From assembly GCA_050744865.1 (NCBI GenBank), contig JBOGHW010000015.1, positions 7,554 through 71,553 on the forward strand: 64,000 nucleotides of DNA, read 5' to 3'. The position numbers and the translations under genes were made by a program. The DNA comes from Acidimicrobiales bacterium (GTDB taxonomy: Bacteria; Actinomycetota; Acidimicrobiia; Acidimicrobiales; Bog-793). Below are positions 5,999-51,864 of the stretch, in pieces (the first letter of the stretch is position 1; each line of letters starts with the position of its first letter). The notes under the pieces were generated by a model. That model worked only from the letters and a program-made list of their open reading frames with translations. It was not told the origin of the DNA and made no database searches.

Positions 5999-6021
5999 CG
6001 AGGCTCAGCCTAGCAGCTATG

Positions 6022-6035
6022 CGAACGTATGTTCC
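6022..6035. promoter_or_regulatory. Candidate LexA/SOS box (GAAC-N4-GTTC) in the alkB/trpB2 divergent region
   Basis: The sequence is cGAACgtatGTTCc, a perfect match to the Gram-positive/actinobacterial SOS-box core. It lies 24-37 nt upstream of the alkB ATG (5998). Confidence 0.45.
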
Positions 6036-6162
6036 GACTGGTCATGGTCCCGCCCCGCCCCGCCCGCCCCGGCCGGGGCCAAAGCCGAAGCTGCTCTGGG
6101 AAGTCTCCTCCCACCTGCGCGATGATTCGCGGAGACATTCCTCCGAGCTAAGGAGTAGTCAG

Positions 6163-7434
6163 GTGCGCTGGACACTCCCTCCGAGCCAGGTACCCGAGGC
6201 CTGGTTCAACGTAGCCCCCCATCTCACGAGCCCGCTCGAACCGCCGCTGCATCCGGGCACCAAGCAGCCGGTAGGCCCGGACGACCTTGCGCCGCTCTTC
6301 CCGATGGCACTCATCGGCCAGGAGGTGTCGGCTGAGCCCTACATAGACATCCCTGGCGAGGTCATCGACGTCCTGCGGCTTTGGCGACCGACTCCCCTCG
6401 TGCGAGCGGAGCGTCTCGAGAAGGCACTCGGAACGCCGGCGAGGATCTACTTCAAGGACGAGTCGGTGTCGCCGGCCGGCTCCCACAAGCCCAACACTGC
6501 AGTGCCACAGGCCTTCTACAACAAGGCGGAGGGTACCAAGCGTCTCTCGACCGAGACTGGCGCCGGCCAGTGGGGGAGCGCCCTTGCCTTCGCGAGTGCC
6601 CTGTTCGGCTTGGAGTGCAAGGTCTACATGGTGCGCGCGTCCTACGGTCAAAAACCCTACCGCCGGGTGATGATGGAGACTTGGGGCGCCTCGGTCGTCC
6701 CATCACCGGTGGACGAGCCGGACCATCCCGGGTCGCTCGGCAAGGCGATCAGCGACGCCGTACGCGACGCCGCCACGCGGGAGGACACCCACTACTCGCT
6801 CGGTTCGGTGCTCAACCACGTCTTGCTGCATCAAACCGTCATCGGGCAGGAGGCCAAGGCACAGCTTGATGCCGCCGGCGAGCGCCTGCCGGACGTGGTC
6901 ATCGGCTGCTGCGGCGGAGGCTCGAACTTTGGGGGTATTGCCCTCCCGTTCGTCCCTGACTCCGGCGTACGCCTCGTAGCTGCAGAACCGACGGCGTGTG
7001 CCACACTGACCGCCGGCAGGTTCGACTACGACTTCGGGGACACTGCCGGCCTGACGCCGCTGCTGCCTATGTACACGCTCGGCCACGACTTCATTCCTCC
7101 GTCAATCCATGCCGGCGGCCTGCGCTACCACGGCGACGCCCCGCTCATCTGCAACCTCGTGAAGGCCGGTCGCGTCGAGGCCATTGCCTACCCGCAGTCG
7201 AAGGTCTTCGAGTCTGCAGTCGAGTTCGCCCGCTCGCAGGGGACGATCGCGGCGCCCGAGACCGCGCACGCCATCCGGGCCGTCATCGACGAGGCCCTGG
7301 CAGCCAAGGAGTCAGGCGAGGAGAGAGTCATCCTCTTCTCCTACTCAGGCCACGGGTTGCTCGACCTCGGCGCCTACGACGACTACCTGCACGGCCGCCT
7401 GGACTCCGACGGTGCCCCGGTGGCTCCTGCGTAG
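6163..7434 (+). CDS. trpB: TrpB-like pyridoxal-phosphate enzyme (tryptophan synthase beta chain, type 2)
   Basis: The start moves to GTG 6163, 8 nt after AAGGAG. The first 48 codons of the ORF-track model (from 6019) are Pro/Arg-rich and cover the SOS-like box. Motifs are [16 protein letters not shown] (PLP lysine region), [11 protein letters not shown] and GLRYHG. No trpA is adjacent. Confidence 0.85.
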
Positions 7435-36956: not shown

Positions 36957-37672
36957 GGCTTCACATCCCCGAAACGTCGCTCCCGCCCCTGGAACTCCCT
37001 TATCGCCTCGAACAGGTTCTCGCGCCGGAAGTCGGGCCACAGAACATCGGTGAACACCAGCTCTGAGTAGGCGAGCTCCCACAGCAAGAAGTTCGACACA
37101 CGAAACTCGCCCGAGGTGCGCACCACCAGATCAGGGTCCGGCATGTCGGGCCAGTACAGCCGGGAGCTGATAGCCCTCTCGTCGATCTTGTTGGCCGGCA
37201 CCCCTTCGGCAGCCAGGCGCCGCACGGCGTCCACGATCTCGGAGCGCCCTCCGTAGTTGAAGCAGATCGTCAGGGTCATGCGGCGGTTGTGCGCGGTGAG
37301 CGCCGCCGACTCGTCCATGTGGCGAAGCAGGCGCTTGGGCACGCGCCAGTCGCGGCGCCCGGTGAAGCGGATCCGGACACCCTTTTCGTTGAGGTCGTCA
37401 CGGTGGCGTGTGAGGATTCCCTCGTTGAAGTTCATCAGGTAACGGACCTCGTCCGGCGGCCGCCTCCAGTTCTCTGTCGAGAAGGCGTACATGGACAACC
37501 ACACCACGCCGACATCGAGGGCTCCCTCGACGGTGTCGAACATCGCCTTCTCGCCGGCGGCGTGCCCCTCGGTGCGGGCCAGCCCCCGGGCGCGGGCCCA
37601 CCGTCCGTTGCCGTCCATCACGCAGGCAACGTGTCTGGGGACGCGCTTAGGGTCGATCCCTTCGATTGGCAC
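36953..37672 (-). CDS. uppS: Isoprenyl transferase (undecaprenyl-diphosphate synthase family)
   Basis: 239 aa. Motifs are HVACVMDGNGRWA, YAFSTENWRRP and RTSGEFRVSNFLLWELAYSE. Confidence 0.92.
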   Translation of the reverse strand: MPIEGIDPKRVPRHVACVMDGNGRWARARGLARTEGHAAGEKAMFDTVEGALDVGVVWLSMYAFSTENWRRPPDEVRYLMNFNEGILTRHRDDLNEKGVRIRFTGRRDWRVPKRLLRHMDESAALTAHNRRMTLTICFNYGGRSEIVDAVRRLAAEGVPANKIDERAISSRLYWPDMPDPDLVVRTSGEFRVSNFLLWELAYSELVFTDVLWPDFRRENLFEAIREFQGRERRFGDVKP

Positions 37673-38507
37673 GAGGCGACGCTAGTGCCGGACTGTGGTG
37701 GGCAGTCGCATCGCTAGGGCCCTGTGCCTCCAGGACCGACGCCACCCAAGCCGAAGCCGCCGATCTGGCGGCAACGATGTCGCCGCACTCCAGCAGCGGC
37801 CAGACCGTATCGTCGACGAGGCCGGACCAGTCGAGGCCCTCGCTCGAGACACCGGCCGACCGCACCGCGACCCTTGCAGTTCCGACGATCTCGGCGAGCA
37901 AGGCGACGGTGGCAGGCAGAGCTTCGCCGATCCGGCGCTTGACCCAGCCTGCCAAGAAGGGGCTGACACCTCCTGTGGACACGGCCACGGCAATCGGGCC
38001 GACGTGGCTGACCGCAGGCATGAAGAATGAGCACGAGCCTGGGTCGTCTGCAGCGTTCACTGGCACTCCGGCTGCCTCCGCGTCCTCGAAGACTTGCCGG
38101 TCCACCTCGGTCCGGCCGGTCGCCGCCATGACGAGCCGGTACTCCGCCGCCTCGCCCGCCCGGTACGGCCGGCGCTCCACTGACGAAAGCGCCAGCCGAG
38201 GCCTGCGCCCGGCTCCGCCAGAGTCGCGCCCGGCTCCGCCAGAGTCGCCTTGCAGGCAGAGCTTCTCCATCGCGGCGCAGATCTCAGGCGCCACCACCGT
38301 CACGAGAGCCCCGCATTCGAGCAGCCCTGCAGCCTTGACGGCGCCGACCGACCCTCCGCCGACGACCAGGCACGCCCTCCCCTCGAGGCGAAGGGCGACG
38401 TGGAACAACCGGGTGGGTGGCTCGAAGCCAGGTTGGGTAGCCACTTGGGCGCCAGGCGAAGGGCCCGGCGCGAGCGGGTCTGCGAGGGTCGGCAGCGGCA
38501 GATTCAT
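37647..38507 (-). CDS. Precorrin-2 dehydrogenase/sirohydrochlorin ferrochelatase (siroheme synthase N-terminal type, SirC/Met8/CysG-N)
   Basis: 286 aa. The Rossmann motif is RACLVVGGGSVGAVKAAGLLECGALVTVVAPE. It contains an internal duplicated heptapeptide. Its 3' end overlaps the uppS start by 26 nt. Confidence 0.75.
   Translation of the reverse strand: MNLPLPTLADPLAPGPSPGAQVATQPGFEPPTRLFHVALRLEGRACLVVGGGSVGAVKAAGLLECGALVTVVAPEICAAMEKLCLQGDSGGAGRDSGGAGRRPRLALSSVERRPYRAGEAAEYRLVMAATGRTEVDRQVFEDAEAAGVPVNAADDPGSCSFFMPAVSHVGPIAVAVSTGGVSPFLAGWVKRRIGEALPATVALLAEIVGTARVAVRSAGVSSEGLDWSGLVDDTVWPLLECGDIVAARSAASAWVASVLEAQGPSDATAHHSPALASPRANRRDRP
38205..38246. repeat. Perfect 2 x 21-bp in-frame tandem duplication inside the sirC-like gene
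   Basis: GCGCCCGGCTCCGCCAGAGTC occurs twice back to back. It encodes GDSGGAGRDSGGAGR on the minus strand. Confidence 0.95.
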
Positions 38508-38631
38508 GAGAGATGTATGTGCTTCCGAGCCACGAACCGGGAATACCCGGAAAATATGATCGGTTTAGTCAGATATAGTACCGGGCCAGAAGTGCGGCAC
38601 ATCCGTCGGCAACTCCCGAGAGGGACAATAA

Positions 38632-39336
38632 TTGGACACCTATGAGGGCACAGCGGTGATCGAGGCTGGTCGGTTCAGCGAGGAGCAGCTCGCAGCCGAG
38701 TCGTCCAGGCTTGAGTCACTCACAATCGAAGAAGCTGCCAAGGGCGCTCTGAACTGGGTAATCGAGAACTTTGGCAGCGACTACGCCGTGGCAAGCTCGT
38801 TCCAGGACGTCGTCCTCGTCGAGCTCGCCGTCAAAGCCGACCCGGCAGCCGAGGTCATCTTCCTCGATACCGAGTTCCACTTCCCCGAGACGCTGGCGTT
38901 CGTCGAGCGGCTTCGCAAGATCTGGGGGCTCAACCTGACCACGACACACCCGGCGGTCGGCCGTGACGAGTCGCCCTGCGGGTCGCCGAACTGCTGCCAG
39001 GTGCGCAAGGTTGCTCCTCTCAACGCCGCCCTCGCAGGCAAGCAGGCTTGGGTGACCGGCCTCAAGAGGGTGGACACGCCAGAGCGTGCCGAGGCGCCGA
39101 TCCTGGCCTGGGACGCCCAGCGCGGCATGGTGAAGGTCAACCCGATGGCCGGCTGGACCGACGACGACGTCGCCGCCTACCTGGCCGAGCACGAGCTGCC
39201 CCTGCACCCGCTCACCTACGTGGGTTACGTGTCGATCGGCTGTGCGCCGACGACGCAGCCGGTGGCCGACGGTCAGAACCCTCGCGAGGGGCGATGGCCC
39301 GGCAGTGACAAGACCGAGTGTGGGCTGCACATCTAA
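38632..39336 (+). CDS. cysH: Phosphoadenylyl-sulfate/adenylyl-sulfate reductase (thioredoxin-dependent), CysH family
   Basis: 234 aa. The TTG start follows GAGAGGGA. The PP-loop-like region is AVASSFQDVVLVELA. NCCQVRKVAPL is the CC motif of the Fe-S (APS) type. The C-terminal catalytic motif is KTECGLH. Confidence 0.88.
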   Translation: MDTYEGTAVIEAGRFSEEQLAAESSRLESLTIEEAAKGALNWVIENFGSDYAVASSFQDVVLVELAVKADPAAEVIFLDTEFHFPETLAFVERLRKIWGLNLTTTHPAVGRDESPCGSPNCCQVRKVAPLNAALAGKQAWVTGLKRVDTPERAEAPILAWDAQRGMVKVNPMAGWTDDDVAAYLAEHELPLHPLTYVGYVSIGCAPTTQPVADGQNPREGRWPGSDKTECGLHI

Positions 39337-39370
39337 AGCCGGCTCCGCTCACTCCGTCTCGCATTCTGCT

Positions 39371-39474
39371 CCGCCACCACCCAGAGCCCGCCACCACCCA
39401 GATCCCGCCACCACCCAGATCCGCCACCGCCCAGAGCCCGCCACTGACCGTCGCCCCCAACACTGACCGTCGCC
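39371..39474. repeat. Intergenic tandem repeat array: about 4 x 17 bp (CCGCCACCACCCAGAKC) followed by 2 x CACTGACCGTCGCC
   Basis: Units lie at 39371-39387, 39388-39404, 39405-39421 and 39422-39437 (the last is 16 nt and degenerate). CACTGACCGTCGCC then occurs at 39442-39455 and 39461-39474. The array lies between the cysH stop (39336) and the sirA start (39491). Confidence 0.9.
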
Positions 39475-39490
39475 AGGACTAGGAACCCCG

Positions 39491-41182
39491 ATGGAATTCA
39501 TCAGACCGTTTCGCACCCTCAACACGCTCAACCAGGTAGAGCAGTGCAAGCTGGCGCGCCATCCTCTCGACGTAGCCGACGCCGTGCGCGACACGTACAG
39601 CCTGCAGGGCCACGAGGCGATCGCTCGGGTCGAGGGTGAAGCCGAGCGCCTCAAGTGGGTCGGCCTTTACCCGCAGCGCCAGGGCGGCGACGCCTTCATG
39701 CTCCGGATAAAGGTCCCGGGCGGCCGCCTGACGGCTGAGCAGGCGGGGAGGATCGGGGAGGTGGTGGATCGTTTCGCTGCTGCACCCGAACCGAGCCCGA
39801 TCTGGGGCGACCGCTACTGCGACATCACCACCCGCCAGGACATCCAGATGCACTGGATCCGCATCGAGGACGTGCCGGCCATTTGGGCGTACCTGTCAGA
39901 CGTCGGCATCACCACCGTCCAGGCCTGCGGAGACTCGGCACGCAATGTCCTCGGATGCCCGGTGGCCGGTGTCGACCGGGACGAGGTCTTCGATGCCTCG
40001 CCGCTGGCGAGTGCCGTGTCCGCCTTCTTCACCGGCAACCGGGAGTACGCCAACCTGCCGCGCAAGTTCAAGCTCTCGATCACGGGCTGTCGCGACGACT
40101 GCGCCCAGGCCGAGATCAACGACGTCGGGATGTGGCCTGCCCGCCGCCGCTCCGACGGCGCCGTCGGCCTCAACGTCCTGGCCGGCGGCGGTCTCTCCGA
40201 CGGCCCTCGCATGGCCAGCGACATCGACGTCTTCGTCTCCCCTGAGCAGACGGTCGAGATCTGCCGTGCCATCGCCCAGCTGTACGGGGAGCTGGGCAAC
40301 AGGGAGAACCGCGGCGTCAACCGCATGCGGTACCTGGTGCAGGAGCTGAGCCCGGAGGGTTTCCGAGCCGAGCTGGCCGCAAGGGCCGCCTTCGAGCTGG
40401 AGCCCGCCGGCGAGGAGCTGACCCGCCGCTACAGGGGCGACCACGTCGGCGTTCACGCCGAGGCCAGGCCTGGCCGCTATTACGTCGGCTGCTCGGTGCC
40501 CGTCGGCCGGCTCTCCGGTCTCGAGCTCGTGGAAGCCGCCCGCCTGGCTGCCGAGTATGGGGACGGCGAGATCCGCCTTGCCACCGACCAGAATTTCTTA
40601 CTGACGGGCGTGCCGGAGGAGCGGCTTGATGCCCTCCTGGCCGAGACCCTTCTCAGCCGTTACTCCCCCTTTCCCGCGCCGTTCGAGCGCGGAGTGGTGG
40701 CTTGCACCGGCAGCGAGTTCTGCCGCTTTGCAATCGTGGAGACCAAAGCGCAAGCCGTGACCTGGGCCAAGGAGATGGACCGGAGGTACGCCGCCGGGTT
40801 CGGTGGAGGTACCGGGCAGCGGGAGCGCCCCGCCGACGCCGTCGTGCGCATGCACTTCTCCGGCTGCCCAGCGTCGTGCGCGCAGCCGCAGATAGCCGAC
40901 ATCGGCTTTAGGGGCGAGACCGCCCACGTCGCTGACCAGATCGTCGAAGCCGTTGACATCTCTTTCGGCGGGAGCCTCGGGATAGACGCAGGCTTCGGCG
41001 AGTGGGCGGCCGGTGCCTTGCCGGTTGGCGACGTCGCCGATTCCATCGGCCGGGTGGTCGAGCGCTACTTGTCGGAGAGGCGGCCTCTGGAGCGCTTCCA
41101 CGAGTGGAGCCGTCGTTCCCCCCGCGAGTCGCTTCAGCTCACGCTCAACGGCGGCAAGGCTGCGCCGGAGCCGGCGCCGTGA
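39491..41182 (+). CDS. sirA: Siroheme-[4Fe-4S] sulfite reductase, ferredoxin-type (NirA/SirA family)
   Basis: 563 aa. Motifs are LKWVGLYPQRQ and DITTRQDIQMHWI. The cluster/siroheme cysteines are CTGSEFCRFA and FSGCPASCAQPQIADIGF. The context (cysH upstream, siroheme gene nearby) favours sulfite over nitrite. Confidence 0.85.
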   Translation: MEFIRPFRTLNTLNQVEQCKLARHPLDVADAVRDTYSLQGHEAIARVEGEAERLKWVGLYPQRQGGDAFMLRIKVPGGRLTAEQAGRIGEVVDRFAAAPEPSPIWGDRYCDITTRQDIQMHWIRIEDVPAIWAYLSDVGITTVQACGDSARNVLGCPVAGVDRDEVFDASPLASAVSAFFTGNREYANLPRKFKLSITGCRDDCAQAEINDVGMWPARRRSDGAVGLNVLAGGGLSDGPRMASDIDVFVSPEQTVEICRAIAQLYGELGNRENRGVNRMRYLVQELSPEGFRAELAARAAFELEPAGEELTRRYRGDHVGVHAEARPGRYYVGCSVPVGRLSGLELVEAARLAAEYGDGEIRLATDQNFLLTGVPEERLDALLAETLLSRYSPFPAPFERGVVACTGSEFCRFAIVETKAQAVTWAKEMDRRYAAGFGGGTGQRERPADAVVRMHFSGCPASCAQPQIADIGFRGETAHVADQIVEAVDISFGGSLGIDAGFGEWAAGALPVGDVADSIGRVVERYLSERRPLERFHEWSRRSPRESLQLTLNGGKAAPEPAP

Positions 41183-41184
41183 CG

Positions 41185-42408
41185 ATGTCCCCGCCCCGCA
41201 TCCGCTCGGAGATGAACGGGATGGGCGAGCCACCGGGCAAAGTCTGGTTCTGGGAGCTGGCTGCCGCCGTTATCGACGCCGGCCGCTGTGTGCAGTGCGG
41301 AGCGTGTGTGGCGGCCTGCCCCACCGACTCGATCGGAGTCGGCCAGGACAACTTGCCAGTGCTCGTCAAGATGTGCACCGGATGTTCGCTGTGCTGGGAC
41401 TTCTGCCCGCGGGGAGGCCTCAGGTACGAGGCGACATGGCACCGGCCTGCCACCCAGTCGCAGGATGACTGGCGCATCACAGGCGCCGATCCAGCTCCCG
41501 GTCTTGGGAAAGTGCGAGAAGCCAATGCCGCGCGGGTGAGATCTGGGAGTAAACTCTCCTCTCAAGGCGCCCAAGATGGTGGCGTTGTATCCGCGATGCT
41601 CCTCGCTTCCCTCGCAGCCGGGGAGATCGACGGCGCTGTCGTGGCGAGGGAGGACCCCGACCATCCGTGGAAGGGAGTTCCTCACCTCGCCACGACTTCC
41701 GAAGAGATCCGAGCGGCCAGCGGCAGCTTCTACAACCAGACGATGGCGTTGTCGCGCCTCGACCTGGCCTCCGCCGGTCTCGCAGCTGACGCCCGCATCG
41801 CCGTCGTTGGTACTCCCTGCGAGATACAGGGGCTGCGGGCCCTGCAAGCTCGCGAGTGGCGCCGCGGGGCTTCGCGGGTGGATGCCGTCGTGCTCACCAT
41901 CGCCCTTTTGTGCACGAAGAGCTTCGACTACAAGCGGCTCATGCTGGAAGAGATAGCCTCCCGCCGCCAGGTCGACTTGGCCGAGGTCGGCAAAGTCGAC
42001 GTCGTCCACGGCCGCATGGTGGTGGAAGACCACACCGGCGAGACGATTGTCGACGAGCCCGTGAAGGCCTTCCACGGCGCTGCTCTGAAGGGTTGCGACG
42101 AGTGCTCCGACTTCTTGGGCCGAGCTGCCGACGTGTCGGTAGGTTCGGTCGGGAGCGCGGCCGGCTACTCGAGCGTCCTTGTTCGTACACCGGCCGGCCA
42201 GAGGGCCTTCGACGCCGTGCGACCCGAGCTGGACCTGGTCGAGCTGGAAGCGCCCGCAGCCCTGGACAAGCTGGACAGGCTGGACAAGAGGATCGCCGCC
42301 ACAGCACTGCAGCGCCCCTTCGACCCCGACGGCCCGCTGTTCATCGACTTCGCCGAGCATGTGACGTTCTACGCCGGCACCGACCGGGCGCCTGTCTGGA
42401 GGGACTGA
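41185..42408 (+). CDS. FrhB/FdhB/FpoF-family protein (coenzyme F420 hydrogenase/dehydrogenase beta-subunit-like) with N-terminal 2x[4Fe-4S] ferredoxin domain
   Basis: Start is ATG 41185 (or GTG 41179, which overlaps the sirA TGA). Ferredoxin motifs are CVQCGACVAACP and CTGCSLCWDFCP. FrhB-type motifs are GAQDGGVVSAML, VVGTPCEIQGLRAL and DVSVGSVGS. Confidence 0.75.
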   Translation: MSPPRIRSEMNGMGEPPGKVWFWELAAAVIDAGRCVQCGACVAACPTDSIGVGQDNLPVLVKMCTGCSLCWDFCPRGGLRYEATWHRPATQSQDDWRITGADPAPGLGKVREANAARVRSGSKLSSQGAQDGGVVSAMLLASLAAGEIDGAVVAREDPDHPWKGVPHLATTSEEIRAASGSFYNQTMALSRLDLASAGLAADARIAVVGTPCEIQGLRALQAREWRRGASRVDAVVLTIALLCTKSFDYKRLMLEEIASRRQVDLAEVGKVDVVHGRMVVEDHTGETIVDEPVKAFHGAALKGCDECSDFLGRAADVSVGSVGSAAGYSSVLVRTPAGQRAFDAVRPELDLVELEAPAALDKLDRLDKRIAATALQRPFDPDGPLFIDFAEHVTFYAGTDRAPVWRD

Positions 42409-42758
42409 TGGGCACGGCTGCCGCCCCGCTCCTGGATGGCTCCGACGGCGGGCTCTGGTCCCTGCCCGAGCCCCTGCCCCTGCTGACGGCCTTGCGCGCC
42501 CGGGCGGCTGAAAGTCCCGCTTCGAGCCGTGCCGAGGCGCCCCGGGAGTTGGCTGCGTGGGCCACCCAGCACTGGGGCGACCGTGTTGCCAACCTCGGCA
42601 TGGGCGACGAAGCGTTGTTCGAGGCCTTCCAGTCCTGCCGGCGTGAAATCTGGCTGTGGGTCACCGGCGACAGGCGCTGGTCCCAGCTGGCCAGCTCGCT
42701 CACGGCCCGGATCGCCCGGCGGGCACTCGCCGACTCCGGTCGCGTCTGTCACTCATAA
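42408..42758 (+). CDS. Hypothetical protein (116 aa), translationally coupled to the FrhB-like gene
   Basis: ATG 42408 shares its A with the preceding TGA (TGATG). The product is predicted helical and I recognise no family. Confidence 0.5.
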   Translation: MGTAAAPLLDGSDGGLWSLPEPLPLLTALRARAAESPASSRAEAPRELAAWATQHWGDRVANLGMGDEALFEAFQSCRREIWLWVTGDRRWSQLASSLTARIARRALADSGRVCHS

Positions 42759-42877
42759 CCCCAGGCGAGGAGAACAGTTGGTTCTTGGCGACTGGTGCGG
42801 AGAGTGTGCCTAAAGTGTCACCAGGGCAATGTGTGCCAGCGGCCGTCTCGAAGTGAAGGCCGAAGGAGAGAGCAAAG

Positions 42878-43165
42878 ATGACCCCAACTACGGCGACCGC
42901 CGGCGCCTCGCCGGATCCCCCCATTGAGCCCGACACTTCTTCACAAGTCGACCCTGATTCCTTTCAGATAACACTGGTGGGACCCGCCGCGCAACTGGTC
43001 AGAGAACTAATCAACCGGACTGCGCCCATTGACTCGGCAAGCGTTGGCGCCGTCGTCGCCGACGCTCTCGTCGTGAAGAAGTGGGTTGACGCCAACGTCA
43101 AGGAACAGAAGCTGTTCCTGCGTGACATGACCGGCCGCATGACCGAGGTCACCAGGGCTCAGTGA
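42878..43165 (+). CDS. Hypothetical small protein (95 aa), possible ribbon-helix-helix-like fold
   Basis: A strong SD (GAAGGAGAGAG) lies 5 nt before the ATG. GC is locally low. The segment SFQITLVGPAAQLVRELINRT...SVGAVVADALVVKKW has a beta-alpha-alpha pattern. Confidence 0.6.
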   Translation: MTPTTATAGASPDPPIEPDTSSQVDPDSFQITLVGPAAQLVRELINRTAPIDSASVGAVVADALVVKKWVDANVKEQKLFLRDMTGRMTEVTRAQ

Positions 43166-43503
43166 CACTACCGGCCGGTCCAGGCGCCGGGCCAGGGACC
43201 CCCTCAGCTCGAGGGGCGACGCCCGAGGCTGGTGTCGCAGCAACGGTCCAGCATGTCGCGACCGGTGATCCGTTTCAACCCAAGGGTAAGACATTTCTCA
43301 CCCTGAGTGACGCGACCACGCGACAGTTATTGGCGCTTTCCTTCTTTGCCCTATTTGCCGCCACTGTCGTTCTGTCCTTCGTGAATATCCATAACAGCAG
43401 CTGGGCGAACACGAAAGAGTGGCTCCAGATTCTGCTACCGGCCGAGACGGCCCTCCTGGGCTCGGCGACCGGGTTCTACTTCGGGAGCAAGAGTCAGTCT
43501 TGA
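43162..43503 (+). CDS. Hypothetical small membrane protein (113 aa, 2 TMs)
   Basis: Its ATG overlaps the upstream stop (ATGA, 43162-43165). TMs are LLALSFFALFAATVVLSFV and ILLPAETALLGSATGFYFG. GC is about 52% by eye, against about 68% in the surrounding DNA. Confidence 0.6.
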   Translation: MTLPAGPGAGPGTPSARGATPEAGVAATVQHVATGDPFQPKGKTFLTLSDATTRQLLALSFFALFAATVVLSFVNIHNSSWANTKEWLQILLPAETALLGSATGFYFGSKSQS

Positions 43504-43637
43504 AGAGATGCCTGTAGCCACCGCGGTCCGGAACGTCATTGTGAGAATGTGAGCTCGGGCGGCGCGCCTCGTGAGTGCGCTTCGCCATGAACCGGGCTGA
43601 CCGGTAGCAGACACCCGCCTGTTTCATCGGGCCCCCT

Positions 43638-44840
43638 CTAGGCACGAGGCGCCCCGGTCCACACCCGCCGGGGCCTGAGTCCATAGCTCCAAGCAAAGGC
43701 GCCTTCGTGATCGGCGTCCCAGAGCACGGCATCGGGCCTGAGCCCGGCTTGGAGCCGCCCCCTGTCACCGAGGCGGAGTGAGGCTGCCCCGCCGGCGGTC
43801 GCAGCTGTTAGCGCCTGCGACACGGACAGCCCGAGGTCGGACACGGCCAGCGCGATCACGAGCGTCATCGAAGTCGTGCCGCAAGTGCCGGGATTGTGGT
43901 CGGAGCCCAGGGCGATGGTCACACCCGCGTCGACCAGCTCCCTGACCGGCGGCGTCACGCCCATCGCAAGAGCGGTGACGGGTGCGAGCGTCGCCACCAC
44001 ACCGGCCGAAGCCAGTGCCTTGGCATCGGAAGCTTCGACCAGGAGCAGGTGGTCGGCTGAGGCACAACCCAGCTCGGCTGCCAGCTGCGAGCCTCCGGTG
44101 CGGGCGAGCTCGTCGGCGTGGATGCGCGGTATGAGGCCGGCACCGGCTGCGGCCGACAGCAGGCGCCGGGATTGGTCGACGGTGAAGTAACCGGCGTCGC
44201 AGAACACGTCGGCGTGTCGCGCTCCCGCCGCACGGGACTCACCGCACCAGGAGGCGGCCGCCTCCACGTAGCCGTCAGGGTCTCCGACGTACTCCGGCCC
44301 GACGGCGTGCCCGGCCAGCCACGTGACCTCGACCCAGGGCAAGCCGGCGCCGGCGAGGCTGGCCAGGATCCTGACCGCTTCCAGCTCCCCCTCCCGGGAC
44401 AGGTGGTAGCCCGTCTTGGCCTCGACCGTGGTGGCACCTCCCGCCAGCCAGCTCTCCAGCCGCGAGCGCGCTGCCGCCGCCAGGTCTCCTGCCGGCGTGG
44501 CGCGGGTGGCCACGACGGTGGAGGAGATCCCGCCGCCGCCGGCGGCGATCTCGGAGTACGAGGCACCGGCAGAGCGCGAGGCGATCTCGGCGAACCTGCT
44601 GCCGCCGTACAGCGGGTGGGTGTGGGCGTCGACGAGCCCAGGCGTGACGAGAGCGCCTTCGGCGTCCACCTCCTCGCCGACGGACCATCCCCCGCGCTTC
44701 GCCGCTTCGGCAAGCCCGTCCTCTGAACCGGCGTAAAGGATTGCTCCCTCGTCGAAGGCGAGGGCGGCGTCCTCGAGGGTCCCTGCGGTGCCGCAGGTCG
44801 CCAGGCGACCGATCGACCGGACGACGGTGATCGTGGTCAC
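43638..44840 (-). CDS. hutI: Imidazolonepropionase
   Basis: 400 aa. Amidohydrolase motifs are PGLVDAHTHPLYGGSR, RIHADE and ALGSDHNPG. It is the last gene of the hut string. Confidence 0.9.
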   Translation of the reverse strand: MTTITVVRSIGRLATCGTAGTLEDAALAFDEGAILYAGSEDGLAEAAKRGGWSVGEEVDAEGALVTPGLVDAHTHPLYGGSRFAEIASRSAGASYSEIAAGGGGISSTVVATRATPAGDLAAAARSRLESWLAGGATTVEAKTGYHLSREGELEAVRILASLAGAGLPWVEVTWLAGHAVGPEYVGDPDGYVEAAASWCGESRAAGARHADVFCDAGYFTVDQSRRLLSAAAGAGLIPRIHADELARTGGSQLAAELGCASADHLLLVEASDAKALASAGVVATLAPVTALAMGVTPPVRELVDAGVTIALGSDHNPGTCGTTSMTLVIALAVSDLGLSVSQALTAATAGGAASLRLGDRGRLQAGLRPDAVLWDADHEGAFAWSYGLRPRRVWTGAPRA

Positions 44841-46265
44841 CTAACCGATGACCGCAGCTTCGTGGGCCGACCGAGCCAGCAGCTCGGCGACCGCCCGCGG
44901 CGGTCCGAGCGAGAGGTGCTCGCCTTCGGCGACCACAACCTTGCCTCCGACGACGACGGAGTGGACGTCGCTCGGATGGGCTGCGAACACGACGCGTGCC
45001 AGTAGCTCCTCCGAGGAGGCGGCTCCGGTGAGCCGGAGCGAGCCCAATCGCAAAGTGACAAGGTCGGCGACGCCACCGGGTGCGATACCGGCTTCCGGCC
45101 ACCCGAGCGACCGGCATCCGCCCGAGGTGGCGGCTTCCAGGAGCGCCGGCACTTGCCAGATCCCCCGGCGCTCAGCGGCGAGGCGCTCGTCGAGCTCGAT
45201 GGCACGCGTCTCCTCGAAAGGATCAATGACGGCATGGCTGTCGCTTCCTATCGACAGCATGGCGCCAGCCTCGGCGAGCGCCGAGAAGCGCCCGATGCCG
45301 TCGCCCAGATCTCGTTCAGTGGTGGGGCAGGCACAGATCGAGCAACGCCTCGATCCGAGCAGGGCCAGGTCGCTCGCAGTGAGATGCGTGGCGTGGACCG
45401 CCGTCATGGAGGGACCCACTGCTCCGGCGTCGTCGAGGAGCGCGGTCGGAGTGCATCCGGTCAGCTGCAGGCACTCCTCATTCTCGCGGCGCTGTTCTGA
45501 CAGATGGACGTGGAGGGGCCAGTCCATGTCGTGAGCGAGCGTGGCGACCGTTGCCATGGCGCTCGGGGGCACGGCCCGCACACTATGGATCGCCGCTCCA
45601 AGCCGTAGGTTGTCGTGGGACCAAAGCGCCTCGGCCAAGCGGCCGGCGCGCTCGGCCCACCGTGAGCCCGACAGGTCACCGAAACGCAGCTGCGGTCCCT
45701 GCAACGGCCTTCCCCCGACACCGGCCTGCAAGTAGCAAGTGTCGAGCAACGTCATGCGGATGCCGGACGCACCGGCGGCCCCGATAAGTGCCAGGCCCAT
45801 GACATTCGGCTCGGCGTAGGGAGCGCCGCCGGACTGGTGATGTAGGTAGTGGAACTCGCCCACGGCCGTGTAGCCGGCGAGCAGCATCTCGGCGTAAACC
45901 GCTATGGCGAGCTGGTGGTACGACTCCGGCGCGAGCTGCTCGGCGACGCTGTACATGAGGTCGCGCCAGGTCCAGAAGTCACCGGAGCGGGTCTCGCTGA
46001 TGCCTCGCAGGACACGATGGAACGCATGCGAGTGCGCATTGACGAACCCCGGCAGGGCGAGGTCACCCCCCAACCGCACGACGCCCGGCTCGAGGGTGGA
46101 CGGGGCAACGCCCGGCCTGACGTCTGAAATCAGTCCTGCTGCGGTGTACCGGACCAGCACGTTGGGAACCAGGCCCTTTTCGGCACCGAGCCACGCCAGG
46201 GAGGCGAAGACCTCCCCTCCGCCCACGGGCGGGGGCGCCCCGCCGTCTCCGTCCACGAGGCTCAC
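44841..46265 (-). CDS. hutF: Formimidoylglutamate deiminase
   Basis: 474 aa. Motifs are [27 protein letters not shown] and GEFHYLHH, which are characteristic of HutF. Confidence 0.85.
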
Positions 46266-47959
46266 TGGGTGCTCGGGCGCCCGATACCTTCGGAAGGGAG
46301 CCAGAGCCCTCGCCGGCGCGCGGTCTCACGGGCCTGGTCGTAGCCGGCGTCGGCGTGCCGCATGACGCCTGTGCCGGGGTCGTTCGTGAGCACGCGCTCA
46401 ACCTTACGAGCCGACAGCTCGGTGCCGTCGGCCACGACGACGGTGCCCGAGTGGATCGACCTGCCGATGCCCACACCCCCGCCGTGATGGACGCTCACCC
46501 ACGAAGCGCCGCTAGCGCAGTTGAGCAAGGCGTTGAGGATCGGCCAGTCGGCGATGGCGTCGCTGCCGTCGGCCATGGCCTCGGTCTCCCGGTACGGCGA
46601 GGCGACAGAGCCCGAGTCGAGGTGGTCGCGGCCGATCACGATGGGCGCGGCGACCTCGCCCGAGGCGACGAGGTCGTTGAAGCGCAAACCGGCGCGGTGC
46701 CTCTCCTTGTACCCGAGCCAGCAGATGCGAGCGGGCAGGCCCTGCTGCTCAACCTTGTCCTCGGCGGTCCGGAGCCATCGCACGACGTCTTCGGCCTCGG
46801 GGAACTCGGCGATGACTGCCTTGTCGGTCGTGCCGATATCGCGAGGGTCGCCTGACATCGCCGCCCAGCGGAACGGCCCGAGCCCCTCGCAGAACAGGGG
46901 TCTTATGTAGGCAGGGACGAAGCCCGGGTAGGCGAAGGCCCGCTCGTAACCTTCAGCTTGCGCTTCGGCCCTTATCCCGTTGCCGTAGTCGAAGACCTCC
47001 GCACCCTTGTCGAGGAAGCCGACCATCGCCTCGACGTGAGTTGTCATGCTGGCTTTGGACCGGCGGACGTAGTCGTCGACGTCACGCTCGCGAAGGTCGG
47101 ACGCCTCGGAGAGCGACAGCCCGGCCGGCACGTACGAAATCGGGTCGTGGGCCGAGGTCTGGTCGGTGACGATGTCGGCCGGGAAGTCCGCTGCGAGAAG
47201 TTGTGGCAGCACCTCTGCCGCGTTGCCGATTAGAGCGACGGACAGGGGGCGACGGTCCCGAGCGGCGTCTGTCGCCAGGGCGACTGCTTCGTCGGTCGAG
47301 GTGACAACGGCATCGACGTAGCGCGTCTGCAACCGGCGCTCGGCCCGAAGCGGGTCGACTTCGACGCATACCGCGACGCCGCCGTTCATCGTGACGGCCA
47401 GCGGCTGGGCCCCGCCCATGCCACCGAGACCTGCCGTGAGGACGATCCTGCCGGCCAGCGTGCCGCCGAAGCGCGACTTGGCCACAGCCCCGAACGTCTC
47501 GTAGGTGCCTTGCAATATGCCTTGGGTCCCGATGTATATCCAAGATCCCGCAGTCATCTGCCCGTACATGGTGAGGCCCTTGGCCTCGAGCCGGCGGAAC
47601 TCGGCGGGGGTCGCCCAGTCCGGTACGAGCAACGAATTGGCGATCAGGACGCGGGGTGCCCACTCGTGGGTGGTGAAGACGCCCACCGGCTTGCCGGATT
47701 GGACGAGAAGGGTCTCGTCGTCGCCCAAGTCCCGCAGCGTGGCAACGATCGTGTCGAACGCCTGCCATGATCGTGCCGCCCTGCCGGAGCCGCCGTAGAC
47801 CACGAGGTCGTCGGGGCGCTCGGCGACGTCGGGGTCGAGGTTGTTCATCAGCATCCGGAGAGCGGCCTCTTGCGGCCAGCCCCGGCACGAGCGATCGGTG
47901 CCGTGAGGTGCGCGGACAAGGCGGGCGCCGTGATCGGCGGGGCGGGCATCAGTCGTCAT
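46262..47959 (-). CDS. hutU: Urocanate hydratase
   Basis: 565 aa. Motifs are [34 protein letters not shown] and HHGGGVGIG. It has 4-nt overlaps with both neighbouring genes. Confidence 0.95.
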
Positions 47960-49506
47960 TCGAGGCCTCCGAACTCGTCTTCCACCATACGAACCAAGTC
48001 GCCGGAGGCGACGAGCTCGACAATTGCGTCAACGTCCGGCTTGAGCTCGCGATCTGCATGCAGCGGTCTCACGACCGTGCGCACGGCGACGAGGGCTGCT
48101 GCTGTCCCCCGGCCGGGCCTGAGCGGAGAACGCAGGTCGCAGCCCTGGGCCGCCGCGAGCAGTTCCATGGCCACGACCACTTCGGCATTGGCGATGTTGT
48201 CGCGGGCGTGCCGGGCGGCGATCATTCCCATCGAGACGTGGTCCTCCTGGCCGGCCGAAGAGGTGATCGAGTCGACGGTTGCGGGGTGGGCGAGCGACTT
48301 GGACTCCGACACGAGGGAGGCGGCCGTGTACTGGCAGACCATGAGTCCCGAGTTGACCCCGGCGTTCGGGACAAGGAAGGGCGGCAGGCCGTTCGACGAC
48401 TTCGGGTCGAGCAGCCGATACATCCGGCGCTCGGAGATCGAGGCGAGGCCGACAGCCGCCGCCGCCAGGGAGTCGCATGCGTGCCCGACAGGTTGCCCGT
48501 GGAAGTTGCCGCACGACAGCACTTCGTCGTCGTCGGCGAGCACTATGGGGTTGTCGGACACCGAGGCGAACTCGGTCTCGAGGACGGCGACGGTATTGGC
48601 GAGCACGTCGCGAAATGCACCATGGACCTGCGGAGCACACCGGATCGAGTAGGCATCCTGCACGACATGGTCGCTGTCGCGGTGCGAAGCGAGGATCTCG
48701 CTGCCGGCTACCAGCGCCGTCATGTTACGAGCAGCGATCTGCTGTCCCGGGTGTGGCCTCAAGGCGACGACCCGGCGGTCGAATGCCCTGTCGGTGCCGA
48801 GGATGGCCTCTATCGTGAGGGCGGCCGCGATGTCGACGGACTTGGCGAGCGTCCTTCCTCGTGCGGCCGCCAGGGCGCCGATGGCCGTCATGCCCTGTGT
48901 GCCGTTGATGAGCGCAAGTCCCTCCTTGGCCTTCAGCTCGACGGGTTCCATGCCCGCTTTGGCCAGCGCCTCGGCTGCCGGCATTACAGTTCCGCCGAAG
49001 CGAACCATTCCCTCGCCCGTGATGGCGATGGCCAGGTGCGCCAAGGGAGCGAGGTCGCCCGAGGCCCCGAGGGAGCCCTGCTCGGGTACGACAGGCAGTA
49101 TCCCGTGGTCCAAAAGCTCGACGAAACGTTGCGCCACCTCCACCCTCACCCCCGAATACCCAAGCGCGAGCACGTGGGCACGAAGAGCCAGCATCGCCCT
49201 GACCTCGGGTTCCCCGAGCTCTTTGCCGACGGCGACGGCGTGGCTGCGCAGCAAGCCGTGCTGCAGGGCTGTCGCGTCCTCTGGCGCCAGGTGCATGTCA
49301 GCGAGGCTCCCGAAGCCGGTGGTGACCCCGTAGACGACTCTGCCTGAGCTGACGGCTCGCTCGACGACTGCCCTTGATGCCTCGACTCGACCGAGTGACG
49401 CGTCGCTCAGCTTGGCAGGCGCTCCGGCCGCCACGGCGACGACGTCTTCGAGCACGAGCGACTCACCGAGCTCGATCGGTGGCACTTGTTGAGGGGACCG
49501 CTGCAT
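47956..49506 (-). CDS. hutH: Histidine ammonia-lyase
   Basis: The start moves to ATG 49506 ([28 protein letters not shown]). The 865-aa ORF-track model is an upstream over-extension. The MIO motif is [25 protein letters not shown] is also present. Confidence 0.92.
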
Positions 49507-49518
49507 TTGAGAGAATGT

Positions 49519-51864
49519 ATGCCCATAGAGACCATCGACGAGCAACCGGGTCCCGTGACCACCGGTCCGCACGAGCGCGGGTTGGCATACCAGGCAGCCC
49601 TCGACGGCGTGAGGGCGGTCGGCATCCTGTCGGTTCTGCTTTATCACGGGGGCGTGGGTTGGGCAGGGGGCGGGTTTCTCGGGGTGGAGGCATTCTTCGT
49701 CCTGTCCGGCTTCTTGATCACTTCGCTGCTCCTGGCCGAGTGGCATAGCGACAAGACGATCAAGCTCTCGCACTTCTGGGCCCGCCGGGCACGCCGCCTC
49801 TTGCCGGCGCTGTTCTGCGTCGTGGCCGCCATCGGTGCGTACGAGGCGATAGCGGGGCCGTCGAAGGCAGTGCCCGACCTGTTCGCCGACGGCCTGGCGA
49901 CGTTGTTCTACGTCGGGAACTGGCACCAGATCTGGACCGGCTCGAATTATTTCGCCGTCACCGCCCAGCAGTCGCCGCTGCTTCATACGTGGTCGCTCGC
50001 CATCGAGGAGCAGTTCTATTTGCTCTGGCCGCTCGTGGTGCTCGCCATCATGAAGCTCGGCAAGGGCGCTCGCCACGCCCGGGTCAAGATCCTGTTCGCC
50101 GTCGCCGTCGCCGGCTCGATCGCCTCGGCCGTCGAGATGCACGTGCTCTATCACGGCGGCGCCGGGATAGACCGCGTCTACTACGGCACCGACACCCGCG
50201 CCCAGGGCCTGCTGGCCGGAGCTGCTTTGGCCTGTGGCCTTGCCTGGTGGCGTCATAGTCGTTCGGGAGCGGGGCAACGGTCGGCGCCGGCTCTCGGCCG
50301 GTGGGCCACCGCAGTCCTTGGGGCGCTCGGGGTCGCCGGCGCCGGGGGTGTGCTGTGGGGCATGTATGCCGCCGGCAACACCGACGGGAGGAGCTCGGCT
50401 CTCTACAGCGGCGGGATGCTCGCCTTCGACGCTGCCACCGTGGCACTGATCGCCTCCGTGACGCTTGCGCCCAAAGCCCCCCTCGCGTGGCTGCTGTCCA
50501 CTTGGCCCCTGCGAACCATCGGCAAGATCTCCTATGGCCTGTATCTGTGGCACTGGCCGCTGTTCGTCTGGCTGACGGAGCAGTCGACCGGCTTGTCCGG
50601 GTTCGAGCTGTTCGCCCTCAGGGTCGGCTCGAGCTTCGCAGTCGCCACGGCGTCTTACTTCGTGATAGAGCAGCCGATCAGGCAGCGCCGCTGGTCGGTC
50701 AAAACCGTCAGGTCCCTTGCGCCGGTGGGAGCCTGCGCCGCAGTGGCGGCGCTCGTACTGGCCGCCAACGTCGCTCCTGTGGCGGCCTCGGGGAGTGGGT
50801 TCGGCAACATCGGGTCAGTGGTGGCGACAGTGGGCGGCGCCGGCGACACAGCTGCGACGCCCCCGTCCAGCGGCGCGCCGAGCACGACCGCCCCGTTGCC
50901 GCCGTCGACTGGCGCGCCCGGCACCACCGCCCCGGCAGCGGTCTTGCAGGACCCCACCACCAATAGTCGAGCCACCGTGAACACAACGGTCCCTCTCGAC
51001 CCTGTGTCCTGGGTCGGCAACCAAAGCTGCAAAGTGCGCCTGGCGGTGCCTGCTCCCTATGACGTACGCGTCGAGTACCACACCTGCCCGCCCGTGCGAG
51101 TCGAGTTGATCGGCGACTCCATGGCGCTGACGTTGGGCTACGGCCTCGAGTCTGAGCAGGAGTCCTATGGGGTCCTCATGGACGACAACGCCGAGCTCGG
51201 GTGCAGCTTCGGGACCAAGGGTGTGGGCGACTGGACCGGGAGCTGGCAAGCGCAGAGCTCTGCCTGTGACAAAGCGTTCCAGACCTGGCACAACGAGATC
51301 GAGAGCTTCCACGCCCAGGCAATCGTGGTGATGATGGGCTACTGGGACTGCTACGACAGGTTGTGGGACGGCCAGGACGTCCACATCGGCGAGCCGGCTT
51401 TCGACGCCTATCTGTACTCCCAGATGGTGAAGTTCGTGCAGACCGAGGGCGTCAGTGGCATCCCGATCGTGGTGCTCAGCGTGCCGTGGGTGGATCCTCC
51501 GCCCTTGGCCAACGGCAGCCCGCAGCCCGCAGCCTCGGCCCTTCGCCACAGCGAGATCAACGCCATGCTGGCGAGGCTTGCCCGCCAGTTCCCCGAGCAG
51601 GTGCACGTCGTCGACTCCGACACGTACGTGTCGCCGGGCAATCACTTCGACTCCGAAGTCAACGGCCACGCCTGCCGGTGGAGCGACGGCGTGCACTTCG
51701 AGACCTACTGCGGACAGCTCATGGCGCCGCCGGTGATGGCCCTCGTCCGCCAGCTCGTGGAGGCCCAAGGAGGTCCCGGCCCGGTTGCCACCAAGACCGG
51801 TACAGCGGTGACCTCGACCACCGCCCCGGTTTCCTCGACCACTTCTACCTCTTCGCCCTCCTAA
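49519..51864 (+). CDS. Acyltransferase-3 family membrane O-acyltransferase with C-terminal SGNH-like domain (OafA/YrhL type)
   Basis: Start is ATG 49519 (MPIETIDEQ). AT3 motifs are LDGVRAVGILSVLLYH, HTWSLAIEEQFYLLWP and ISYGLYLWHWP. A T/P/A-rich linker follows. The C-terminal domain has LIGDSMAL (SGNH block I-like). Confidence 0.85.
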   Translation: MPIETIDEQPGPVTTGPHERGLAYQAALDGVRAVGILSVLLYHGGVGWAGGGFLGVEAFFVLSGFLITSLLLAEWHSDKTIKLSHFWARRARRLLPALFCVVAAIGAYEAIAGPSKAVPDLFADGLATLFYVGNWHQIWTGSNYFAVTAQQSPLLHTWSLAIEEQFYLLWPLVVLAIMKLGKGARHARVKILFAVAVAGSIASAVEMHVLYHGGAGIDRVYYGTDTRAQGLLAGAALACGLAWWRHSRSGAGQRSAPALGRWATAVLGALGVAGAGGVLWGMYAAGNTDGRSSALYSGGMLAFDAATVALIASVTLAPKAPLAWLLSTWPLRTIGKISYGLYLWHWPLFVWLTEQSTGLSGFELFALRVGSSFAVATASYFVIEQPIRQRRWSVKTVRSLAPVGACAAVAALVLAANVAPVAASGSGFGNIGSVVATVGGAGDTAATPPSSGAPSTTAPLPPSTGAPGTTAPAAVLQDPTTNSRATVNTTVPLDPVSWVGNQSCKVRLAVPAPYDVRVEYHTCPPVRVELIGDSMALTLGYGLESEQESYGVLMDDNAELGCSFGTKGVGDWTGSWQAQSSACDKAFQTWHNEIESFHAQAIVVMMGYWDCYDRLWDGQDVHIGEPAFDAYLYSQMVKFVQTEGVSGIPIVVLSVPWVDPPPLANGSPQPAASALRHSEINAMLARLARQFPEQVHVVDSDTYVSPGNHFDSEVNGHACRWSDGVHFETYCGQLMAPPVMALVRQLVEAQGGPGPVATKTGTAVTSTTAPVSSTTSTSSPS

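Follow-up and report, generated by a model that had tools for sequence, protein, structure and literature searches.

A bacterial cysH-sirA operon with an FrhB-like partner gene: a predicted two-subunit, F420H2-dependent sulfite reductase of the aFsr type

What delivers electrons to an assimilatory sulfite reductase whose gene overlaps that of a flavo-iron-sulfur protein of the FrhB family? We asked this of a 64,000-nucleotide (nt) stretch of an uncultured Acidimicrobiales bacterium from soil (assembly GCA_050744865.1, contig JBOGHW010000015.1, positions 7,554 to 71,553 of the forward strand; GC content ∼0.68), which is called the window below and in whose own numbering positions are given. In the window, cysH, sirA, a gene for a 409-amino-acid FrhB-like protein and an open reading frame (ORF) of 116 amino acids form a single co-directional block (Table 1). 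We read this block, with a probability of about 70%, as an operon for the reductive branch of sulfate assimilation whose sulfite reductase is a two-subunit, F420H2-dependent enzyme of the aFsr type, with SirA as the alpha and the FrhB-like protein as the beta subunit. The first-pass annotation of the window had proposed a dedicated FrhB/FpoF-type electron-input subunit for SirA, i.e. a split analogue of the F420-dependent sulfite reductase Fsr. The co-conservation of the two genes, their coupling, the nearest relatives of the FrhB-like protein, its F420-site loop and the F420 genes cofD, cofC and cofE next to the operon in one lineage all support this proposal.

How closely are the two genes joined? 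The junction lies where it had been placed: the sirA stop codon TGA (41180-41182) sits within GTGACGATG, overlaps a GTG at 41179 and is followed by an ATG at 41185. We take the GTG rather than the ATG as the start of the FrhB-like gene, giving a 4-nt overlap, because homologs of the protein begin with MTMSPPRIR and an independent gene call yielded 409 amino acids from the GTG. The gene described in the first-pass annotation was thus found, and only its length had to be changed, from 407 to 409 amino acids with a GTG start. At the other end, the stop codon of the FrhB-like gene shares one nucleotide with the ATG of the 116-amino-acid ORF (TGATG, 42406-42410), as had been claimed. The family matches also agree with the proposed cysH-sirA context and the divergent siroheme gene: the cysH product scored 227 bits against NCBIfam NF002537 (cutoff 154), and the siroheme gene matched Pfam NAD_binding_7 (7e-27) and Sirohm_synth_M as well as NCBIfam TIGR01470 (cysG_Nterm, 2e-34).

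Could this pairing be a coincidence? Scanning one genome per GTDB species, we counted at least 572 that hold a relative, and the best 80 loci served as the locus set; stop/start overlaps and SirA residues were counted over 83 loci or orthologs. As all 80 related loci have sirA immediately 5′ of the FrhB-like gene and on the same strand, the pairing is not a product of chance. Of the 83 loci examined for an overlap, 68 share 4 nt between the end of sirA and the start of the FrhB-like gene and seven more share 1 nt (75/83); the 4-nt form is kept across phyla and domains. A cysH gene is found upstream of sirA in 71 of the 80 loci (six lack it despite room on the contig), and a homolog of the siroheme gene lies divergently upstream in 64. 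The 80 loci come mostly from metagenome-assembled genomes of Acidimicrobiales/Acidimicrobiaceae, together with Rubrobacteraceae and one record labelled 'Chloroflexi'. Co-conservation with sirA, on which the first-pass annotation had made its idea depend, persisted to 42-44% identity: a relative with 44% (L084) is paired with sirA through a 4-nt overlap, and one with 42% (L085), on a haloarchaeal contig, lies behind a rhodanese-NIR_SIR fusion. Two SirAs without an FrhB-like neighbour served as unpartnered controls, those of Streptomyces rimosus (sirA-orf-cysH-cysC-cysD-cysN) and Ca. Chlorohelix (sirA-sirC-cobA-cbiX). A natural SirA-FrhB fusion was also considered as 'Rosetta stone' evidence. 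The sole example is a partial ORF of 693 amino acids (P0166) that joins NIR_SIR/NIR_SIR_ferr to Fer4 and FrhB_FdhB_N, and we give it little weight because an assembly that is wrong by 1 nt within the 4-nt overlap would look identical.

Has such a pair been described before? Susanti & Mukhopadhyay (2012, PLoS One 7:e45313, PMC3448663) proposed a two-subunit enzyme, aFsr, for haloarchaea, in which alpha is aSir and beta is a homolog of Fsr-N, the latter corresponding to FrhB plus two N-terminal clusters. Halogeometricum borinquense is named in that paper, and its trees include Rxyl_0964 of Rubrobacter xylanophilus and a Thermobaculum protein. In annotated records we saw the haloarchaeal pair on H. 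borinquense pHBOR03, on Haloferax mediterranei pHME505 and in Halomontanus rarus. HBOR_RS18225 of H. borinquense, encoded next to the aSir gene, is 51% identical to the window beta over 400 amino acids (E 4e-142), while the window alpha is 55% identical to aFsr-alpha of H. borinquense and H. mediterranei, compared to 36-37% for unpartnered SirAs. The order of the genes is identical as well, an aSir-type gene followed by an overlapping gene of the Fsr-N/FpoF type. Because the window pair is orthologous to the haloarchaeal pair published in 2012, the idea of the first-pass annotation is a rediscovery: the operon is a well-supported case of the aFsr prediction, which is already in print as a hypothesis, and the published annotation proposes the same function and not a different one. 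The aFsr of the 2012 paper is haloarchaeal, whereas the window pair belongs to Acidimicrobiales and lies in a cysH/sulfate-assimilation context; in addition, the bacterial beta has 409 amino acids against 548-574 in haloarchaea, and the bacterial operon contains the 116-amino-acid gene as an extra conserved member. The 2022 paper on FsrII still called aFsr 'putative', and a 2021 review placed FrhB-type F420 enzymes in Euryarchaeota only and Fsr in two methanogen orders only. What appears to be new is the bacterial scale and host range (at least 572 species genomes, mostly of soil and peat Acidimicrobiales), the conserved third gene in bacteria and a cysteine signature in the SirA proteins that have a partner.

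We asked which members of the FrhB family are closest to beta. Its best sequence match in the PDB is the F420-reducing zeta subunit of ACDS (8riu_B, 4e-40), and further matches are 9tn7 (an Fsr-like protein of 613 amino acids), Fsr (7np8 and 7npa, ∼1e-36; 2e-36 for 7np8), FwdI (8rja_E) and FrhB (∼1e-32). A Foldseek search with the AlphaFold model of beta gave the same ranking as the sequence search, with 8riu_B, 8rja_E, FrhB and Fsr at the top. The nearest solved relatives of beta are all F420-dependent enzymes. HCAR matched with 4e-5 only and just the N-terminal part of beta, leaving the F420-site segment of beta unmatched at E<=10; a ferredoxin-dependent protein of the HCAR/BciB type was for this reason rejected as the closest model. 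An exhaustive HMMER search showed the beta clade to be tight, with members at least 42% identical and then a gap to ∼36%. ACDS zeta and FwdI dock on their catalytic partners via the N-terminal ferredoxin domain and couple them to F420 (PMC11493965). The two proteins of Ca. Ethanoperedens thermophilum (8RIU_B, 8RJA_E) resemble beta in that they are free-standing and consist of a ferredoxin domain, an FrhB domain and a C-terminal extension. They differ from it in their partners (CO dehydrogenase and formylmethanofuran dehydrogenase), in the flow of electrons, which is towards F420, and in their archaeal hosts.

Does beta keep the cofactor sites of these enzymes? A Pfam scan detected a Fer4 dicluster, FrhB_FdhB_N (4.5e-19) and FrhB_FdhB_C (1e-32), the latter two being the families that had been suggested for a check. 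All motifs quoted earlier were present, i.e. two CxxCxxCxxxCP motifs (C35/38/41/45-P46 and C64/67/70/74-P75) and the FrhB/FdhB/FpoF hallmarks GAQDGGVVSAML, VVGTPCEIQGLRAL and DVSVGSVGS. In an alignment of 20 FrhB-like sequences (A1), all twelve cluster cysteines are invariant, eight in the ferredoxin domain plus C212, C243, C304 and C307, which align with the [4Fe-4S] ligands Cys104/134/192/195 of M. marburgensis FrhB (3zfs_C; residue roles from Mills et al. 2013). The flavin adenine dinucleotide (FAD) site is represented by AQDGG at 129-133 (GQDGG in FrhB) and by Y183, both invariant in A1; in the Lys75-Tyr76 loop of FrhB, the Lys is replaced by Phe in beta and by Asn in ACDS zeta. The FrhB structure has F420 density beside S209-V210, and the lysines of 163-IGKGK were proposed to bind the F420 phosphate (Mills et al. 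2013). The corresponding loop of beta, S321-V322, is identical to S209-V210, and the IGKGK turn reads VVHGR in beta, with the first Lys replaced by His and the second by Arg. Residues G320-S321-G323-S324 and G276 are invariant in A1. Judged from the alignment, the loop and turn of beta are compatible with F420 binding, short of proof. The C-terminal extension, which FrhB lacks and which is conserved in bacterial and haloarchaeal beta proteins, might have a role in docking or oligomerisation.

The AlphaFold models were single chains, of beta and of the 116-amino-acid ORF. For beta alone, the mean predicted local distance difference test (pLDDT) score was 64; the core (residues 111-370) was modelled well and the ferredoxin domain poorly. 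The parts with low scores are the ferredoxin domain (41185-41439) and the tail at residues 375-407 (42307-42405), which would fit regions that become ordered upon cluster binding or partner docking, but they may only reflect a shallow alignment.

Next to be settled is the substrate of SirA. The protein contains two repeats of NIR_SIR plus NIR_SIR_ferr (Pfam; NIR_SIR 1e-50, NIR_SIR_ferr 3e-36), and it matches plant ferredoxin-nitrite reductase (5e-91) and M. tuberculosis SirA (1zj8, 5e-78) in the PDB. The ligands of the siroheme-coupled cluster (C405/C411/C459/C463, Cx5C…Cx3C) and the basic residues R151 and R191 are conserved. The M. tuberculosis enzyme, called 'NirA', is reportedly a sulfite reductase with a Cys-Tyr bond in its active site (Schnell et al. 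2005). Tyr60 and Cys146 of the window SirA align to positions 80 and 172 of the 1zj8 chain, which we take to be Tyr69 and Cys161 after an 11-residue tag; plant nitrite reductases have Phe and Met/Gly instead. Tyr60 is kept in all 83 SirA orthologs and Cys146 in 81 of them. The surroundings of the operon are those of sulfur metabolism, as sat-cysC-tauE follow in Rubrobacteraceae loci and cysDN occur in some Acidimicrobiales loci. Together with cysH and the rhodanese fusions, this context and the Tyr/Cys pair support sulfite rather than nitrite as the substrate.

Is there anything in SirA that goes along with the presence of beta? In its N-terminal NIR_SIR repeat, the protein has three further cysteines (C156, C200, C204) that 80 of the 83 partnered SirAs share, and in an hhalign comparison of the two halves of the protein (97% probability) they align with the cluster ligands C405, C459 and C463 of the C-terminal half. 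They are also present in the partnered SirAs of H. borinquense, H. mediterranei and H. rarus, whereas the unpartnered control SirAs (S. rimosus, Chlorohelix) lack them, as do the M. tuberculosis enzyme and plant nitrite reductases. One exception is a haloarchaeal rhodanese-fusion SirA (L085), which is partnered yet does not have them. This pattern suggests a second Fe-S site, which could be an electron entry point. The M. tuberculosis SirA (NirA, 1ZJ8) thus shares with the window protein the hemoprotein family, the siroheme-cluster cysteines and the Tyr/Cys pair, and differs from it in using free ferredoxin as the donor and in lacking the three extra cysteines of the N-terminal half. As regards the haloarchaeal fusions, some aFsr-alpha proteins carry an N-terminal rhodanese domain and reach 793-846 amino acids (L085:5617-7998; L089:4104-6644), and the one from Halomontanus keeps the extra cysteine signature, unlike the L085 variant.

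We then asked whether the operon is linked to F420 by its genomic context. We scanned 150 non-conserved ORFs of the 80 related loci for F420 genes, and the F420_ligase and CofC matches among them trace only to loci of the Rubrobacteraceae type. In two of these (L054:2904-5323 and L065:2836-5351), an operon with the order cysH-sirA-frhB-like-orf120-sat-cysC-tauE is immediately preceded, on the same strand, by cofD and a cofC-cofE fusion. Another (L069:1395-3693) has cofD, cofC and cofE as separate genes, and a single interrupted MFS-type gene lies between them and the downstream cysH; in L073 (4544-5299) cofE is directly upstream of cysH. The cofD, cofC and cofE products of these loci exceed the NCBIfam equivalog cutoffs (TIGR01819, TIGR03552 and TIGR01916), and we found no mention of this cofDCE-operon linkage in the searchable literature. 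Since only Rubrobacteraceae-type loci showed F420 genes, the F420 capacity of Acidimicrobiales is taken from the literature: Ca. Actinomarinales, another order of the class Acidimicrobiia, has been reported to make F420 (PMC7771536). Genomes of haloarchaea encode the F420 pathway, and the cofactor has been detected at low levels in halophiles (PMC8305020).

How would such an enzyme work? We infer that alpha and beta form a complex in which beta oxidises F420H2 at its FAD, with the FAD acting as a switch between two-electron and one-electron transfer. Electrons would then pass to the [4Fe-4S] cluster held by C212/C243/C304/C307 and on to the two [4Fe-4S] clusters of the ferredoxin domain, which would stand in for the free ferredoxin of an ordinary SirA, and from there to the siroheme-[4Fe-4S] centre of alpha, where sulfite would be reduced to sulfide. 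As in Fsr, each sulfite would consume three F420H2. We expect the same overall reaction as for group I Fsr of Methanococcales (7NP8/7NPA), the input half of which is likewise a ferredoxin domain followed by an FrhB-type F420H2 oxidase; the same domain order for the N-terminus of Fsr is given in PMC10229431. Fsr, however, consists of one polypeptide whose reductase half resembles Dsr and contains an inserted ferredoxin domain, whereas the window system uses a separate hemoprotein of the NirA/SirA type. The input modules of the two systems are homologous and their siroheme reductases only distantly related. E. coli CysJI also combines a flavoprotein input subunit with a siroheme hemoprotein, but CysJ is a non-homologous diflavin reductase, and its donor is NADPH.

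Several observations weigh against F420H2 as the donor. HCAR uses ferredoxin, and an FrhB fold is no guarantee of F420 use. The FrhAGB hydrogenase of Thermococcus onnurineus is reported to reduce rubredoxin with H2 (PMC13333549). In beta itself, the equivalent of FrhB K165 is His, and the protein scores 146 bits against the FrhB equivalog TIGR03289 (cutoff 331.5) and 128 bits against the FpoF equivalog NF040616 (cutoff 475); it therefore forms a separate clade, neither hydrogenase FrhB nor respiratory FpoF. We found no F420-biosynthesis genes in the window or in ∼7 kb beyond it, none at Acidimicrobiales loci in the scan of 150 ORFs, and no biochemical or genetic test of aFsr in the searchable literature. 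For the window, the first-pass annotation had already stated that genes for F420 biosynthesis, ATP sulfurylase and APS kinase are missing, and gene calls and family scans, which covered most but not every one of its ORFs, detected none of them. The scores below the two cutoffs and the F420 genes not seen at Acidimicrobiales loci would fit a beta that feeds SirA from a different donor, either a carrier of the ferredoxin or flavodoxin type or a flavin or deazaflavin such as Fo, and that is mainly a tethered polyferredoxin with a flavin; it would share independence from F420 with HCAR and T. onnurineus FrhAGB. We regard this as unlikely. Beta has the F420-site loop of FrhB in identical form and a turn compatible with F420 binding, HCAR does not match this segment, sequence and fold searches both place F420 enzymes nearest to beta, cofDCE adjoins the operon in Rubrobacteraceae, and the Pfam scan revealed no NAD(P)H-binding domain in beta.

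The other two explanations concern SirA and the meaning of the adjacency. The pair might act in nitrite assimilation as an F420-dependent reductase comparable to FsrII/FNiR, given that the best NCBIfam and PDB matches of SirA are named ferredoxin-nitrite reductase, that the haloarchaeal orthologs are annotated 'ferredoxin--nitrite reductase', and that enzymes of the Fsr type reduce nitrite too, according to PMC10229431 and PMC9295563. A physiological role of this kind is nevertheless quite improbable: most loci have cysH next to the pair, sat, cysC, cysDN and tauE turn up within these operons, haloarchaea have rhodanese fusions, no genes of nitrate or nitrite assimilation were found nearby, and the Tyr60/Cys146 pair matches that of M. 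tuberculosis NirA, a sulfite reductase despite its name. It is still harder to believe that the genes are neighbours merely because of shared regulation or cofactor needs (e.g. siroheme or Fe-S maturation) and that no electrons pass directly from beta to SirA. A siroheme-synthesis gene is indeed in the neighbourhood, and the case for an interaction is an indirect one, but such an arrangement would leave unexplained why the 4-nt overlap is maintained in different phyla and domains; it would also leave unexplained the cysteine signature of SirA, which among the compared sequences is confined to partnered proteins; one database ORF, P0166, joins NIR_SIR to Fer4 and FrhB_N, and direct precedent exists in Fsr, ACDS zeta and FwdI.

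If the aFsr-type reading is correct, the six electrons for sulfite come from F420H2 and not from ferredoxin or NADPH in a large part of the soil and peat Acidimicrobiia, the Rubrobacteria and the haloarchaea, and bacterial F420, which is usually tied to secondary and xenobiotic metabolism, would have a central biosynthetic role. The pair is carried by cultured organisms, Haloferax mediterranei, Halogeometricum borinquense and Rubrobacter xylanophilus, and the bacterial breadth, the cofDCE linkage, the third gene and the cysteine signature make the hypothesis of 2012 directly testable in culture. The signature tells a partnered from an unpartnered SirA, and the cofactor sites of beta are clearly predicted.

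Finally, we asked what the third gene might contribute. Small ORFs that encode proteins of ∼105-125 amino acids with the motif RRExWLWxxG[DE]RxW…GLAGRxxRR lie 3′ of the FrhB-like gene in 72 of the 80 loci; in the loci examined, the stop of beta and the start of the small gene often overlap. The 116-amino-acid protein of the window has 874 relatives, every one of them annotated 'hypothetical', and two independent members of this family are again encoded directly after an FrhB-like gene. We obtained no Pfam or NCBIfam match for it and saw no conserved cysteines in the family. The AF2 model (pLDDT 86) is all-helical, as the first-pass annotation had said of the protein, and it has no match in the PDB (best Foldseek E-value 2). 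We did not find the gene at the inspected haloarchaeal loci, where the ORF in its position is non-homologous. Our guess is that the protein is a structural or assembly subunit. One may go further and imagine the bacterial aFsr as a three-part enzyme, with a second Fe-S cluster in the N-terminal half of SirA (C156/C200/C204 together with C146 or an Asp) to which the ferredoxin domain of beta would hand its electrons, and with the Trp/Arg-rich protein of ∼110 amino acids as a structural or assembly subunit; we put this forward as a tentative and rather doubtful extension. If it is true, F420 would be a core anabolic cofactor with which hundreds of Acidimicrobiia species, abundant in soil and peat, assimilate sulfur.

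Table 1. Positions of the operon genes, their predicted functional sites and the divergent neighbour in the window
Feature	Position	Strand	Remarks
Siroheme gene, CysG-N-terminal type (precorrin-2 dehydrogenase / sirohydrochlorin ferrochelatase)	37647..38507	-	Divergent from operon
cysH, (P)APS reductase	38632..39336	+	First gene of block; Pfam PAPS_reduct 1e-37
sirA / aFsr-alpha, siroheme-[4Fe-4S] assimilatory sulfite reductase, NirA/SirA type	39491..41182	+	563 amino acids
SirA Tyr60 and Cys146	39668..39670 (Tyr60), 39926-39928 (Cys146)	+	Match the active-site Cys-Tyr pair of M. tuberculosis SirA
SirA stretch with C156, C200, C204	39956..40102	+	In N-terminal NIR_SIR repeat; possible second Fe-S site
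GTGA, FrhB-like start overlapping sirA stop	41179..41182	+	Translational coupling
aFsr-beta, FpoF/Fsr-N-type flavo-iron-sulfur protein	41179..42408	+	409 amino acids; predicted F420H2-oxidising electron-input subunit
N-terminal ferredoxin domain of aFsr-beta, 2 x [4Fe-4S]	41260..41439	+	Fer4_21/Fer4_10, residues 28-77; predicted docking/electron-exit module
FrhB core of aFsr-beta	41560..42228	+	QDGG 130-133; C212/C243/C304/C307; VHGR turn 42004-42015; DVSVGSVGS 42130-42156
C-terminal extension of aFsr-beta (…LQRPFDPDGPLFIDFAEH…)	42229..42405	+	Absent from FrhB; conserved in bacterial/haloarchaeal beta
116-amino-acid helical protein	42408..42758	+	ATG overlaps aFsr-beta stop; candidate third component or assembly factor

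As to the surroundings of the operon, no regulatory elements came up when 38300-43700 was scanned with Rfam and for promoters and terminators. Two small co-directional ORFs (95 and 113 amino acids, 42878-43503) follow the 116-amino-acid gene after a gap of 119 nt; neither has a family match, and no conservation of them was seen in related loci. On the opposite strand, a histidine-utilisation block (43638-50553), which is unrelated to the finding, abuts the operon and comprises two amidohydrolases, a urocanase and a gene of the aromatic amino acid lyase family that is probably hutH. A pyridoxal-phosphate-dependent enzyme of the PALP family (471 amino acids, 6019-7434) is encoded ∼32 kb upstream and could be of the cysteine-synthase or CBS type.

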